64,000 bases of DNA from Saccostrea cucullata. Lineage: Eukaryota. The translations under genes were made by a program, and so were the position numbers. Shown here in pieces: positions 32,615 to 50,016 of this stretch; position 1 is the stretch's first letter, and the number at the start of each line of letters is the position of its first letter. The stretch spans positions 1 through 64,000 of the forward strand of contig NW_026921639.1 of assembly GCF_032062105.1 (NCBI RefSeq), read 5' to 3'. A model generated the notes under the pieces. It saw only the letters and a program-made list of their open reading frames with translations, was not told the origin of the DNA and made no database searches.

Positions 32615-32940
32615 AGTCCATGAATTCACAGTGGTCGGTATAGTTGTATAGTAAAATAATTAAAAAGAAAACACGAAGACAACAAAGTAAAGCATTAGCG
32701 CTTTCATTTAAAAATCTTCAGATGCTTTACAATCAAGTTTTTTAACTGTCACATAGTAACGCCTTCTATGACGTCATAATTAGCGGAACGTAATACAGTC
32801 TCTATGACGTAATTCTCCCAGCAGTTATTACGGGAAAGTCAAACAATGCTATTTAGCTTTGGTTTTAAAGTAGTAATAAAGTGTTTTTCTTTTTCTCTTC
32901 GTTGGATTTGGTTTCCGAACATCTTATAGAACGGGATATA
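32611..32940 (-). mobile_element. PLE family B 3' end (GIY-YIG C-terminus plus pLTR)
   Basis: Minus strand reads YIPFYKMFGNQIQRREKEKHFITTLKPKLNSIV*, homologous to family A IFPFYK...RRQKEKHFICTLKPKLNNLM*; ends at (AT)n. Confidence 0.85.
32687..32730 (-). ncRNA. Minimal type I hammerhead ribozyme (family B)
   Basis: GUAAAGCAU-CUGAAGA-UUUUUAAAU-GAAA-GCGC-UA-AUGCUUUAC; perfect 9-bp stem I. Confidence 0.85.
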
Positions 32941-32976
32941 TACTTAAAGTAAAAAAGAAAAACACGAAAAACTCCA

Positions 32977-33017
32977 GTAAAGCTTTAGGCCTTTCATTCT
33001 ATCTTCAGAAGCTTTAC
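32977..33017 (-). ncRNA. Minimal type I hammerhead ribozyme (family A, copy 1)
   Basis: GUAAAGCUU-CUGAAGA-UAGAAU-GAAA-GGCC-UA-AAGCUUUAC. Confidence 0.85.
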
Positions 33018-33215
33018 AAAATAAACAACTGTAGTAACATAGTAACGTTACACAATAATTGGCGGAGTATATGACGTCGTTATTATGAAGTCAAATGTAC
33101 TATGACGTCATAGTTAACAGCTCTTTGCGCACAGGTAAAAGTACGGGAAATTTTCAAGTTCTTAATAAAATGCAGATATACATATGCATACATAATTAAA
33201 TCTAATTGATATACA

Positions 33216-35633
33216 TTACATCAGATTGTTAAGTTTTGGTTTTAACGTACAAATAAAATGTTTTTCTTTCTGACGTCTACTTTAACTTATATCATTTCCT
33301 CCTGCTACTTTATAAAACGGAAATATCGTAAATTTCTTTTGTCCACACACGTCTAAATGTTCACTTAATGGTATTTGTCTATACTCCGGAGTGTTAATCT
33401 GTTGCTTGTGGGTACGAACCCGGGTACGGAGGGTGTTACTGGTCTCACCTATATAATACTCACTACATCCCGGACAGGTTATCACATATAAAACATTTTG
33501 TGTATCACACGACATATTGGCGTTCACTGTAAATTGTCTGCCGTTGAAGTTATAATAAGATCCTTCAGTAAGAAAATCACAGGTTCCGCACCGAGGATTT
33601 TCACATTTTTTCACTGAATAGGTTCCTTCAAAATTAGAGTTACACAGGAGTCTTTTCAGGTTCTTGGGTTGGCGTCTACTTGAGATAAATTTTACGTCCT
33701 TATAAATTGTCTTTGTAGTTTCGTCCTCTCTAAGAATTGTGTTCAGTTGGTGAACAATGGGGTTGATGTTCTGGTTCCGGGGATTATGCGTGTGCACGAA
33801 GGGAATGATATTCTCGTTAACTTCACGTCCTTTGGCTAAAAGTAATTCTGATCTTTCATGTTCCTTTGCTTTAAGTATTCCATCATCTATAAGCTGGACT
33901 GGATATTTCTGTTTAAAAAGATACGTTTTAAGTTCATGTAAACGAATGTCCCTTGTATCCTTTTCACTGACAATGGCGCATATACGTCTGGCAAGGTTAT
34001 AAGGAATGGCTGTTTTGGTATGATGCGGATGGCAGGAACCAAAATGTAAGTATTGGTGTGTATCCGTCACTTTGTAAAATATGTCAGTAACAATCCTTGT
34101 GTCCTTCTTAACAACGAGAACATCTAGGAATGGTAGTTCATTTTCACTGGTATCTATTGTAAATTTGATGTTGGCATTCAACTCATTTAATATTTTATGA
34201 AAAACGTCTAATTTTTCGACACTCTCATCCCATAAAATAAAACAGTCATCTAGAAATCTTTTCCATTTAGATTTAAGGTTATTGGCTATATCTTCTCCCC
34301 ACAATGTTATGAGTCGTTGGTGAAGTTTGAATTCTAAGTAACCTAGGGTAAGTGTTGCGTACGTCGGTGCAACTTTGGTTCCCATGGCAGTTCCTTTAGT
34401 TTGTAAAAAATGGTTATCATTAAAGGCAAACGTATTATTTTGAAGGACTAATTTTAATCCTTGAACGACAAATTCTTGTGGAAAGCGATCATGAAGAAGG
34501 TAAGGATGTTTTTCTATCCAGAATTTTATCGCTTCTATTCCGAGTTCCGTTGGAATGTTAGTATACAAACTAACAACATCAAACGTAACTAATTTAGTAT
34601 TATCCTTAACGACGTCTGGTAAATGATTCAGGAAGTCAAGATCATCTCTAATGAAACTTGGTACCTTTTCACAGAATGGTTTCAGCAATATATCTAATAA
34701 ATGGCTCAATCTTTGGGTAGACGAGTTAGGGCCTCCAACAATAGGTCGGAAAGATAAATCCTGTGGGTTAAGGCAGGTAATATATTCAGAATTCTGAGAT
34801 TCTATGGCATTCTTAATTTCCGTCGATTTATGAACTTTAGGTAAGCCGTAAAACTGACTTTCGCGGGCTTCAAAATTTATAAGATAGTCTCTTTCCTTGT
34901 CTGTTAATTCCTCAGAAAAAGGTTCATGGACAAGACTTTTTATTTTTGACATCGATTTCTTTTCATGCGTTTTGTTAATCTTTTGGTGAAATTCGGTGTC
35001 TTGTAACATGGTCAGAATTTTATTTTCGTAAAAGTCTTTGTCCATGATGACAACTCCTCCTCCTTTGTCTGCCTCTTTAATGACTATATTTTTGTCGCTA
35101 CACAAGTCTTTTAGGGCAATTTGTTCATCCTTAGAAAGATTTGATTAATAATTAGGTATGTTGGTGTCTGGAAGGTTGATGTTTTCAAGCGTCTCGCAAA
35201 CAGTATCTAAAGTACGATTTCTTCCTCGTTTTGGAATAAAATCTGACTTGTTTCTTACAAGATCCTCGGGCTGTGTATGTTCAGTTTCTTCATTAAAATC
35301 ATTCTCGTCCTCATCCTCGTGGAAAAACTCCCTTAGTCTTAAACGGCGTGTATATGATTTAATATCTGTTTTTAGTTCCTGGTGGTTCCTTCTAGGTGTA
35401 GGAGTATACTTCAAACCTTTAGAAAGTAATTTTATTTCCGAATCTGTAAGGGTCCTGGATGATAAATTAAATACTTTAGGATCCGTTGACGTGTTTGGGG
35501 AAGAGCTATCCGTACCTATATTAATGGAGTTGTTTTTTCCTATTGGGCACGAGGTTTGTATTTCTCGCCTTGATTGGGGTTGCCTCCGCCTACAAAATGG
35601 TTTCTTGCACCCCTTCCAATGTATGTAGTGTCC
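33216..35633 (-). pseudogene. PLE pol (RT plus Cys-rich linker plus GIY-YIG), copy 1
   Basis: LLSKGLKYTP, ADKG, FDVVSLYTNIP, GTAMGT, RFLDD, LPFLDV, CxxxxCxxC, VLYVITCPGCSEYYIGET; in-frame TAA at 35145-35147; a 6-bp insertion adds a stop at 33282. Confidence 0.9.
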
Positions 35634-36768
35634 TCATCCCTGTAGATATTTTGTTGTCTAAATCTCATATTTTGTTGCTTTTTGTTGTTAAAAGCTGGAT
35701 GATTGTGTCGCTCCATAGCGGTGCTAGAATGGTTTGTCTGGTTATTTTGACTCCTACGGCCCGTATTGAAACTTTTGGTTTTCTGGTTGTTCCTCAATCC
35801 TGTCCAGTCATTTGGTCGCGGATTTTTATGTGTATCGGATACATTATTCACATGTGATGATGTTTTTTGATAATGGGTCCTAGTCGGTCTGTATCCTCCA
35901 TCCTCATGGGAAAGTGCTTCATTCCTCACAGCAGATGCATAGTTTAAACGCGAAGATTGGGATTTCTTAGACTGCATTTTTTGTGCTGGTTTTTTGCCCG
36001 GCTTCTTGGTTTTAACAACTTCCTTACCATATGTTCGTTCATAATCAAGTAACCAAGCCTCTGAATAGCGCCATCTTTTGTAAGATTTATCTTCTTCCTT
36101 TCGACATTCTGACTTCCACATTTCTTGAAGTAAATCTAGAATAATCCCGTTGGCTTTTTTCTTTAGTGTTTCTTCCATTTCTTGATCTAATTCTATAACT
36201 TTCTTTTGATTGTTTTCCGCTCTCATACGAAGTAATGCAATCTCACCTGTGACACGATTTTTAGCAACTTCAACCCGTACAGCTAATTGGTCCTCTGGCT
36301 CTCCTCGAATTTCCTTTACTCTGAATTTCCTTGGAATTATAGGATTTTCCCGGTTAATCCATTTTTCAAAATAATCTGCATGATTTGCATTGCTGATTTG
36401 TTTCCAATATGTTTGTTTCCTGGTGTTCAAAATTTGGCTCCATATCGTTTAATATTGTGCTTGACTCTCACAGCCTCCCTTTCCAAAGCAAGTTCGTTTA
36501 TCTGGTTTTGTAGTAATTGTGTGGGGGATTGATAGGCCCTTACTCCAATGTCAGAATTATGAACACATTTCAAACTCGTCTCCTCAGTATCACTGCGAGA
36601 ATTTAATACTGCAGTGGAAAATTCATTTGGAATAACATGACATTTTCGACATACCTCAATCAAGTCTTTTAAAAGTTGATTAGTAGTATCCGTTTTCCTG
36701 ATAAGTTCAAGTAATAAACTTTCTTTCTCCGCTTCTTTTTCTTTATTCATCGAATTTCGTGTTTCCAT
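35540..36768 (-). pseudogene. PLE ORF1-like helical/coiled-coil protein, copy 1 (apparent 1-nt frameshift near 36448)
   Basis: ORFs 36427-36801 and 35540-36430 join as HNIK(T)IWSQILNTRKQTYW if one A is restored; repeated with the unit. Confidence 0.7.
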
Positions 36769-36864
36769 CTCGAACACTGGTTGAGAACATATAAAATCCA
36801 ATAAATAGTCTCAGTGGTCGGAATTAAATACTTAAAGTAAAAAAGAAAAACACGAAAAACTCCA

Positions 36865-36905
36865 GTAAAGCTTTAGGCCTTTCATTCTATCTTCAGAAGC
36901 TTTAC
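36865..36905 (-). ncRNA. Minimal type I hammerhead ribozyme (family A, copy 2)
   Basis: Identical to 32977-33017. Confidence 0.85.
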
Positions 36906-37103
36906 AAAATAAACAACTGTAGTAACATAGTAACGTTACACAATAATTGGCGGAGTATATGACGTCGTTATTATGAAGTCAAATGTACTATGACGTCATA
37001 GTTAACAGCTCTTTGCGCACAGGTAAAAGTACGGGAAATTTTCAAGTTCTTAATAAAATGCAGATATACATATGCATACAAAATTAAATCTAATTGATAT
37101 ACA

Positions 37104-49644: not shown

Positions 49645-49685
49645 GTAAAGCTTCTGAAGATAGAATGAAAGGCCTAAAGCTTTAC
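49645..49685 (+). ncRNA. Minimal type I hammerhead ribozyme (family A, copy 4); predicted cleavage between 49676 and 49677
   Basis: GTAAAGCTT CTGAAGA TAGAAT GAAA GGCC TA AAGCTTTAC. Confidence 0.85.
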
Positions 49686-49750
49686 TGGAGTTTTTCGTGT
49701 TTTTCTTTTTTACTTTAAGTATTTAATTCCGACCACTGAGACTATTTATT

Positions 49751-49752
<2 letters not shown>

Positions 49753-49822
<70 letters not shown>
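49753..49822. repeat. (AT)n microsatellite
   Basis: Direct sequence. Confidence 0.95.
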
Positions 49823-49824
<2 letters not shown>

Positions 49825-49890
49825 AAAAGAAATAAAATAAATATCTCAGTGTCCGGTAATCAATATTAAAATAAAACAAAAAGGCAACAC

Positions 49891-49939
49891 TTGTTAAAAC
49901 GTAAGCGCTTTCATTGTTTTCTTCAGATGTTTTAAACAA
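49891..49939 (-). ncRNA. Minimal hammerhead (family C, minus arm; one stem I mismatch)
   Basis: AAAACAU-CUGAAGA-AAACAAU-GAAA-GCGC-UU-ACGUUUU. Confidence 0.7.
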
Positions 49940-49967
49940 TTTAAACTTGTGACGTGACAAGTTTAAA

Positions 49968-50016
49968 TTGTTAAAAACGTCTGAAGAAAACAATGAAAGC
50001 GCTTACGTTTTAACAA
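49968..50016 (+). ncRNA. Minimal hammerhead (family C, plus arm)
   Basis: AAAACGU-CUGAAGA-AAACAAU-GAAA-GCGC-UU-ACGUUUU. Confidence 0.8.

Follow-up and report, generated by a model that had tools for sequence, protein, structure and literature searches.

Organization of the PLE cluster

The window, the whole stretch of 64,000 nucleotides analysed here (Saccostrea cucullata, contig NW_026921639.1, positions 1 to 64,000), contains a cluster of PLE sequences bordered and interrupted by (TA)n tracts (Table 1). Four copies of family A, three in tandem (c3, c2 and c1) and one inverted (c0), lie between a 5'-truncated stub of family B, which matches copies at three other loci (L132, L063 and L064) at 97–98%, and a head-to-head insertion of family C, for which RT-EN copies are present elsewhere in the genome (L131).

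Table 1. Coordinates of the PLE insertions, hammerhead motifs and associated features
Feature	Position	Strand	Details
(TA)n microsatellite	32561..32610		Left edge of PLE cluster; target site
Family B PLE	32611..32936	-	5'-truncated; last ~25 EN codons (ending in QRREKEKHFITTLKPKLNSIV and stop) and pLTR with tail
Hammerhead B	32687..32730	-	Stem I GUAAAGCAU/AUGCUUUAC; stem II region UUUUUAAAU; GCGC; CUA; predicted cut 32696/32695
Family A unit c3	32941..36795	-	Full length; short 3' end (+45 nt past cut site)
Hammerhead A3	32977..33017	-	Stem I GUAAAGCUU/AAGCUUUAC; UAGAAU; GGCC; CUA; predicted cut 32986/32985
Family A unit c2	36796..45055	-	3,891 nt without nested insertion; RT-EN frame 39035–37104
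Hammerhead A2	36865..36905	-	Predicted cut 36874/36873
Nested non-autonomous DNA transposon in c2	39515..43881		Inverted ends starting with CAGTG; TA duplication
Family A unit c1	45056..47488	-	5'-truncated
Hammerhead A1	45125..45165	-	Predicted cut 45134/45133
Inversion junction	47488..47551		60-nt inverted element piece
Family A inverted copy c0	47552..49752	+	5'-truncated; long 3' end (35-nt tail)
Hammerhead A0	49645..49685	+	Predicted cut 49676/49677; no same-strand A partner
(TA)n	49753..49822		Separates A and C insertions
Family C head-to-head insertion	49823..50028		Pair of pLTR ends (long with tail; short)
Hammerhead C'	49891..49936	-	A.C mismatch in stem I pair 2; predicted hairpin sequestration
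Hammerhead C	49968..50016	+	Stem I AAAACGU/ACGUUUU; AAACAAU; GCGC; CUU; predicted cut 50004/50005, hairpin-sequestered
(TA)n	50029..50087		Right edge of PLE cluster

The elements have the features of EN+ PLEs of the Neptune/Nematis type. RT is followed by a C-terminal GIY-YIG domain with CCHH; the family A frame matches the Pfam models RVT_1 (E = 2.9e-7) and GIY-YIG (E = 7.3e-7), the C..C/H..H pattern is present in all families, and the CX2-5CxxC linker between RT and EN reads CENPRCGTC. In c1, a frame of 640 aa (47286–45364) encodes RT, the CX4CxxC linker and GIY-YIG. The pLTRs, the tandem and inverted copies, the 30–40 nt tail and the (TA)n target were also found, with ends at ~+45 and ~+80 and TA flanks. 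A non-LTR retrozyme, with non-coding tandem units of ~150–450 nt that carry canonical type I hammerheads, was rejected because the units here are 3.9-kb RT-EN elements or their truncated ends.

Seven hammerhead motifs and the pairing of stem I

A descriptor scan (CUGANGA, 3–20 nt, GAAA, 0–8 nt, UH, at least 6 of 7 stem I pairs) found exactly seven sites in the window, with CUGAAGA at 49654 and 49981 on the plus strand and at 49926, 45156, 36896, 33008 and 32721 on the minus strand, whereas 200 dinucleotide shuffles gave a mean of 0.105 sites and a maximum of 1. The seven motifs of the earlier note are thus present, with the stem I arms and 6–9 nt stem II regions described there and with the stem III tetramers as claimed, GGCC in family A and GCGC in families B and C. 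They are not seven independent examples, as the four A motifs are letter-identical and lie inside one defective insertion. Each has the type I hammerhead core (C3UGANGA9, G12AAA and U16.1H17, the ends closed by stem I), and no aligned family deviates at CUGA.GA, GAAA or UH, a conservation that shows selection, not cutting. AAU precedes GAAA in eight of the nine families used in the arm-swap test described below and is absent from one helix-II-less family. Judged against the L131 family form, the A.C mismatch of C' is consistent with CpG decay.

The three window families by themselves do not establish the covariation of stem I that had been claimed (arm-swap P = 0.16), but it emerges when relatives from the same genome are added. 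The arm-swap test with nine families gave P = 0.00025, and in a 10-row alignment 92.5% of the cells are paired and 7 of the 12 pairs show double changes, a score reached by none of 500 shuffles and far above slid controls; the significance of the shuffle test is inflated by the common descent of the rows.

The covariance-model check proposed for the motifs was negative: none of the 12 matches returned for the window by Rfam cmscan at E ≤ 1 was to a hammerhead family. This blindness of the Rfam models, and the fact that assembly errors can yield near-identical tandem copies, could suggest that the matches arose by chance or as an assembly artefact. However, the excess over shuffles in the window is accompanied genome-wide by 844 matches to the pattern CTGAWGAN{3,8}AATGAAANNNNTH against 74 for its reversed control, individual copies are marked by variants not found in the others, and the nested transposon is flanked by a target duplication of its own. 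The chance reading of the motifs is already refuted, and the probability that we give to chance and artefact together is negligible.

Collapse of helix II

In the minimal hammerheads of metazoan PLEs (Cervera 2014), positions 15.2–16.2 and loop 3 form a palindrome, and this is the case in all seven window motifs. The published consensus also includes G10.1-C11.1 within a helix II of ~3–8 bp, with A9 followed by an additional base, and helix II has at least 3 bp in the rows examined of part 2 of Cervera supplementary file 2. In contrast, the multi-pair helix II with G10.1-C11.1 has collapsed here. In all nine families A–I the best possible helix II consists of 1–2 pairs, which are A-U pairs at most, or U.U, and the basal G-C pair is found in none.

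The collapsed form is not rare. Three genome-wide patterns gave 844, 514 and 276 matches (controls, 74, 50 and 66), and helix-II forms are no more common in this genome than the helix-II-collapsed one. Among the 100 matches listed for the first pattern, in which the tetramer was left free, 71 have a palindromic tetramer (by eye, GCGC in 55, CCGG in 10 and GGCC in 6). Four other families in the genome have a helix II of 3–4 G-C-rich pairs, and same-type two-ORF PLE families retain both helix II and the GCGC loop. Since this loop is common to 11 of the 13 families, a family-specific palindrome code via the loop alone is not supported; specificity of pairing would need stem I as well. The RT-EN identity among five helix-II-collapsed families is only 46–70%. 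The collapsed helix II is the sole departure from the published consensus and is retained across families at this level of RT identity. A tree of this genome's families splits three ways at its base, has no usable outgroup and does not give the direction of helix II loss. The helix-II-less form was not found in the PLE literature surveyed, although the set of Lunse 2017 may include such forms.

The activity of the motifs could be nil, because G10.1-C11.1 and a real helix II are missing. According to the part of PMC13725137 consulted, natural hammerheads with a 1-bp helix II cleave at ~1e-2 per min and those with no helix II at ~1e-3 per min, and U10.1.U11.1 is tolerated in hammerheads (PMC3088659, in part).

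Predicted folding and availability of partners

Folding prediction gave a hammerhead probability of 0.0000 for the monomer. Folding favours the double hammerhead of a homodimer over the monomer (A-A, -22.7; B-B, -21.9; C-C, -12.3 kcal/mol, scored for the motifs without the 3.9-kb spacing), and the scores of mixed pairs are poor (A-B, -4.9; A-C, +11.5; B-C, -1.1 kcal/mol). Cofolding of homodimers nevertheless has its minimum in an alternative fold, 1–4 kcal/mol below the double hammerhead. The probability of stem I within ±70 nt of context was 0.32 for A and 0 for B; it was also 0 for C and C', for which a long hairpin is predicted to lock up the motifs. The earlier note was right that these are PLE hammerheads whose palindromic stem III would need a partner, but a same-family, same-strand partner is available for only three of the seven, the A motifs at 45156, 36896 and 33008. 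A0 and C each stand alone on the plus strand, and B is alone in the window. The motifs here are an unusually reduced form, predicted to cut slowly and only in pairs.

A defective array of family A

In c3, ORF1 is disrupted by a frameshift near 36450, ORF1 and ORF2 overlap near 35600, and stops occur at 35145 and, from a 6-nt duplication, at 33282. The spacing between same-strand A motifs is 3,888 nt in one interval and 8,260 nt in the other, which is lengthened by a nested insertion of 4,367 nt that we take from its hallmarks to be Tc1/mariner-like. One A interval therefore fits the ~3.9-kb unit-length RNA proposed in the earlier note and the other does not, and the unit of the 3.9-kb interval is unable to encode RT-EN. 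No consistent pseudoknot was obtained after the slippery site in single-sequence predictions. An intron or conserved uORF starting from the AUG in AAUGAAA was rejected on inspection, lengths and splice signals not being conserved.

The premature stop of the array occurs in three of nine genome-wide matches, all three inside the window, and eight further locus-private substitutions are common to all four A copies. Such template-borne private changes, with the same stop found at no other locus, would be explained if the RNA had to be cut twice and re-ligated into a ~3.9-kb circle and rolling-circle reverse transcription of one such circle had built the array, a form that Cervera and De la Pena 2014 give to the idea of the earlier note. 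The seamless junctions between units and the 5-unit arrays of other families (spacing, 3,766 and ~1,577 nt) also agree with this. However, an uncut tandem transcript accounts for the same junctions, hammerhead mutants inserted normally in vitro with no RNA ends at the site (PMC11167929), and the copies differ from one another: only c0 and c2 have a 9-nt duplication and only c2 and c3 have one derived base, which points to later recombination or duplication. We consider a required circle rather unlikely. An alternating dimeric template, suggested by the 9-nt duplication, is in conflict with another site.

Genomic copies across the predicted cut site

A 5' extension of at least 20 nt runs through the cut site in 28 of the 30 A copies sampled (24 of 26 outside the window). 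The 3' ends lie +41–49 (10/30) or +79–89 nt (17/30) past the cut site, three copies continue into the next unit, and the copies show a tandem plus inverted layout with mostly TA-rich flanks. Because insertions start +45/+80 nt past the cut and nearly all run through it, a released linear unit-length RNA does not hold up as the main template; the copies are compatible only with RNA that was uncut or re-joined to a circle.

Among 76 A matches, 14 head-to-head pairs were found. Two head-to-head junctions lie at the cut site, four at the 5'-arm palindrome and one at the stem III palindrome, so run-off at the cut site was rejected as their cause. The absence of an excess at the cut site and the reduction of helix II to 1–2 weak pairs at most would both be expected if the motif no longer cuts and its palindromic loop is a signal for RNA–RNA pairing or protein loading that brings two RNAs to a dimeric RT; this would also explain the frequent two-armed inverted insertions. 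The invariant CUGA.GA, GAAA and UH would be unneeded for simple pairing, however, and other hammerheads that lack helix II are able to cleave (PMC13725137, in part). We regard a non-cutting motif as improbable.

In RNA-seq data, ~45% of each of three raw-read runs (oligo-dT, apparently unstranded) yielded 180, 130 and 136 reads on 32700–37400, and a contig run yielded 13 records. No pile-up of molecule ends was seen; such libraries cannot reveal 5'-OH/cyclic-phosphate ends or circles and are therefore evidence neither way. Most motif-covering reads derive from a diverged truncated copy elsewhere in which U16.1 is changed (65 of 69 in X22).

The predicted cut of A2 lies 105 nt upstream of the c3 ORF1 ATG (36768), and the corresponding distance is ~106 nt in family D. 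Slow cleavage might thus serve translation by creating a new 5' end, removing the motif AUG (AAUGAAA) and permitting cap-independent initiation, as reported for the hammerheads of fungal RNA viruses in the consulted part of PMC13725137, where hammerheads in 5' UTRs, some of them with a short helix II and cleaving in vivo, are tied to translation initiation. The pLTR layout alone accounts for this position, however, and AAU is not present in every family; we regard a role in translation as very unlikely.

Proposed mechanism and implications

The motifs are pLTR hammerheads of three EN-bearing PLE families in one (TA)n tract, and we think it probable that in an active element two same-family copies join via their palindromic stem III and cut slowly, probably aided by the element's protein. 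An element transcript would carry one hammerhead per end, and the two could form a double hammerhead with a 6-bp intermolecular stem III and swapped stem I arms. Cleavage would be only a side route for element RNA, since the RNA that is reverse transcribed is uncut or re-joined. The window motifs themselves are probably passengers: the A array is one insertion, which would have been copied in trans from a template that was already broken, B is a lone stub, and C and C' would fold on each other.

With four motifs in one broken insertion and only three having a matching partner, the locus represents a variation on a system already described rather than something new. As originally posed, the finding is ordinary: the literature already covers PLE hammerheads, the dimer mode and the unit-length/circle model, and the locus is defective. 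More significant is the helix-II-collapsed form, which is common in this genome yet invisible to Rfam. The collapsed and helix-II-bearing families provide natural matched pairs in one genome for asking whether a partner RNA or protein can replace helix II, and they also bear on what PLE hammerheads are for. A bolder reading, which we consider unlikely, is that a PLE lineage has a doubly stripped hammerhead (no helix II and no intramolecular helix III) that is active only as a same-family pair on its own RT dimer and whose slow cut, ~105 nt ahead of ORF1, turns an RNA that served as insertion template into a message or a circle. If true, few natural hammerheads would be smaller, and any descriptor search that demands helix II would overlook hundreds of such motifs per genome.

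Comparison with known systems

One of the closest likenesses is to the metazoan PLE minimal hammerheads (Cervera 2014), which share the type I topology, the CUGAAGA/GAAA/UH core, the palindromic helix III, the pLTR location, the proposed dimer action, the circle model and the tandem and opposite-strand pairs; apart from helix II, the window motifs differ in a longer helix I (7–9 bp) and a loop that is a 4-nt palindrome. The idea of a tandem partner releasing unit-length RNA is likewise a published proposal (PMC4209133; PMC6765202), and the small PLE variants of Lunse, Weinberg and Breaker 2017 are alike in the reduced palindromic stem III, the PLE association and the dimer requirement (PMC6765202, in part). 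The type I hammerheads of chrysoviruses and fusariviruses resemble the window motifs in the loss of helix II, the kept core and the placement before an ORF, but their helix III is long and they work as monomers, whereas the window motifs lack a stable helix III as well (PMC13725137, in part).

Neptune/Nematis-type EN+ PLEs (PMC8557442) share the C-terminal GIY-YIG with CCHH, the CX4CxxC linker, the (TA)n targets, the tandem and inverted insertions and the 30–40 nt tail, and the Fig. 1 legend of that paper describes an ORF1 separated by a frameshift. The hammerhead of the PAc Poseidon element (PMC11167929) is alike in the pLTR motif, the two RT start points that give the tail and the copies made from unprocessed RNA, but stem II is present and the ORF starts inside the motif, whereas ORF1 starts ~105 nt downstream here. 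This PLE hammerhead required its protein for cleavage, and insertion in vitro could proceed without the hammerhead (PMC11167929). In the architecture of their tails and inversions, the A copies match the elements in both PMC8557442 and PMC11167929.

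The hammerhead motifs and their PLE cluster

Exactly seven sites in the window match the hammerhead descriptor with the stem I test, the number given by the earlier note, against a chance expectation of 0.105 per window (maximum 1) in 200 shuffles. These motifs are real and known in kind. In the covariance-model search that had been proposed for them, no Rfam hammerhead family matched the window at E<=1. They belong to three Penelope-like retroelement (PLE) families, A, B and C, whose cluster occupies one (TA)n tract (table).

Features of the window (c0-c3, family A copies; pLTR, PLE terminal repeat carrying the hammerhead)
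Feature	Position	Strand	Remarks
Family A hammerhead A0	49654	+	Descriptor match; identical to A1-A3
Family A hammerheads A1, A2, A3	45156, 36896, 33008	-	Descriptor match
Family B hammerhead	32721	-	Descriptor match
Family C hammerhead C	49981	+	Descriptor match
Family C hammerhead C'	49926	-	Descriptor match; stem I mismatch relative to family C
(TA)n runs	32561-32610; 49753-49822; 50029-50087		
Family A insertion	about 32941 to 49752		
c0			Inverted, truncated
c1			Truncated
c2			Full, interrupted by the nested transposon
c3			Full
c0 + c1	45049-49762		2.2-kb inverted repeat, 60-nt spacer
Nested transposon	39515-43881		4,367 nt, non-coding, TA duplication, CAGTG-starting inverted ends, (ATCCT)n subterminal repeats; presumably Tc1/mariner-like
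Tandem duplication within it	42372-43099		363 nt
Family B element			326-nt 3' stub
C/C'			pLTR ends, head-to-head pair; family C RT-EN copies occur elsewhere
TGACGTCA (CRE-like) palindromes	32769, 33103, 36991, 45251, 49552, 49950		Repeated in A and B pLTRs; include half site at C/C' centre
Tail motif (example)	49730-49741		CCG..(C/T)ACTG(A/T)G
Distant PLE-type RT fragment	23427-24323	+	About 23-29% identity to cluster families
LINE-type RT element	10087-12897	-	Broken; RVT_1 E 2.9e-29
DDE_Tnp_4 fragment	54319-54834	-	Harbinger-like
rva_4 integrase-core ORF	60941-62194	+	417 aa
Repeat	15994-16357		Histone 3' stem-loop match (16108-16153)
tRNA-like repeat sequence	21542-21614		
168-nt tandem array	52271-53211		
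~145-nt tandem array	62824-63656		

The family A insertion ends 45 nt beyond the predicted cut on one side and about 80 nt beyond it on the other. Among 30 genomic family A copies, taken in contig order from 76 exact matches, 10 have short ends, 17 have long ends and 3 run on in tandem. This arrangement matches the tails and inversions that PMC8557442 reports for PLEs and that PMC11167929 attributes to two RT start sites. Read-through of the c0/c1 inverted repeat would give long double-stranded RNA. The TGACGTCA palindromes are possible promoter elements, and the motif that families A, B, C, D and G share in their 35-nt tails is a candidate RT-binding or start signal.

Structural selection and predicted dimer folding

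The covariation claimed for the three families stands as pairing, with 21 of 21 stem I pairs kept, but not as a significant result, three families being too few (arm-swap P=0.16). A genome-wide search for the core with AAU preceding GAAA gave 844 matches versus 74 for the control; by eye, 71 of the 100 matches listed out of these 844 carry GCGC, CCGG or GGCC at the four unconstrained positions, and a further 7 are one change from GCGC. A 10-row alignment has 92.5% of its cells paired and double changes at 7 of 12 pairs; its score was reached in 0 of 500 shuffles, which is not a probability because the rows are related. RT-EN identity among the five families with the AAU form is 46-70%. Taken together, the genome-wide palindromes, the covariation and the RT-EN divergence show that the motif is under structural selection.

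Folding prediction gave the monomer hammerhead a probability of 0.0000. Double hammerheads are predicted at -22.7 (A-A), -21.9 (B-B) and -12.3 kcal/mol (C-C) for homodimers and at -4.9 (A-B), -1.1 (B-C) and +11.5 kcal/mol (A-C) for mixed pairs; for the homodimers, cofolding favours alternative structures that are 1-4 kcal/mol more stable than the double hammerhead. The suggestion that tandem copies supply the partner could apply to A1, A2 and A3 but not to the other four motifs, which have no matching same-strand partner in the window. Similarly, the ~3.9-kb unit fits one cut-site interval (3,888 nt) but not the other, which is now 8,260 nt and would have been 3,891 nt before the nested insertion. 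The model of dimers and unit-length RNA was already proposed in the discussion of PMC4209133 and in PMC6765202.

Template and cleavage

Of the 30 family A copies, 28 run through the cut site, and RT starts downstream of it; a linear cut-to-cut RNA therefore cannot be the usual template, which was uncut or circular. Two head-to-head junctions lie at the cut-site palindrome and four and one at neighbouring palindromes, positions that give no sign of cut templates. The hammerhead of PMC11167929, which needed protein, was dispensable for insertion in vitro and left no RNA ends, agrees with this pattern and also speaks against a circle as a required step, which we consider unlikely. That the motif is a non-cutting pairing signal appears quite improbable, and a service in translation would be very surprising. 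We rather favour slow cleavage as a side route, in which a same-family partner RNA, probably together with protein, would enable cutting beside the copying of uncut or circular RNA.

Coding state and origin of the family A array

In relatives, two frames overlap at a conserved U_UUU_UUA run in the -1 frame (ORF1 ..H/YFLGGG.., ORF2 ..FFRRRQ..; loci L126, L128, L129, L132 and L033), likely a programmed -1 frameshift; no consistent structure was predicted downstream of the run in these two-ORF PLEs. ORF1 of such a frameshift type is mentioned in the Fig. 1 legend of PMC8557442. In the window copies, ORF1 is frameshifted, the slippery run is changed (~35600, ~39490) and a stop lies early in ORF2. 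Genome-wide, 9 matches were compared; 3 of them have this stop, each inside the window. A set of 8 further substitutions private to the locus is common to all four copies, which diverge from one another by about one substitution each across 2.2 kb. From the shared stop, the private substitutions and the near-identity of the copies, we infer that the array derives by copying in trans from a single RNA that was broken beforehand, and that some reshuffling followed. The family A array is defective, and the locus is inert by coding.

Helix II and comparison with known hammerheads

In all nine families A-I, the best helix II consists of 1-2 weak pairs and G10.1-C11.1 is missing. Four other families, two of them of the same two-ORF PLE type, have a helix II of 3-4 G-C-rich pairs with an identical GCGC loop. 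Elements with helix-II-bearing hammerheads form arrays of five tandem copies at genome contigs G000:C1949:922-16012 and C6605:198937-205277 (spacing 3,766 and about 1,577 nt), and both frames are open at L139, from a helix-II-bearing family. The CTGATGACGTCATATTTGACGAAAGGCTTT motif family, abundant in G000 (e.g. C366:22920-22949), has a helix II and a non-palindromic tetramer.

No helix-II-less PLE form was found in the parts of the PLE literature and supplements searched; Lunse 2017 and Arkhipova 2017, which lay outside these, may contain one. Weak helices II have precedents in PMC3088659 (1-2 bp and U.U), PMC7229834 (U.U in an axolotl motif) and PMC13725137 (0-2 bp, cleaving slowly). With its collapsed helix II, the motif is a variant that merits a single in vitro experiment. 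Families A-I would resemble the min-HHR of PMC4209133 in mode but lack one feature of its consensus, a substantial helix II with G10.1-C11.1.
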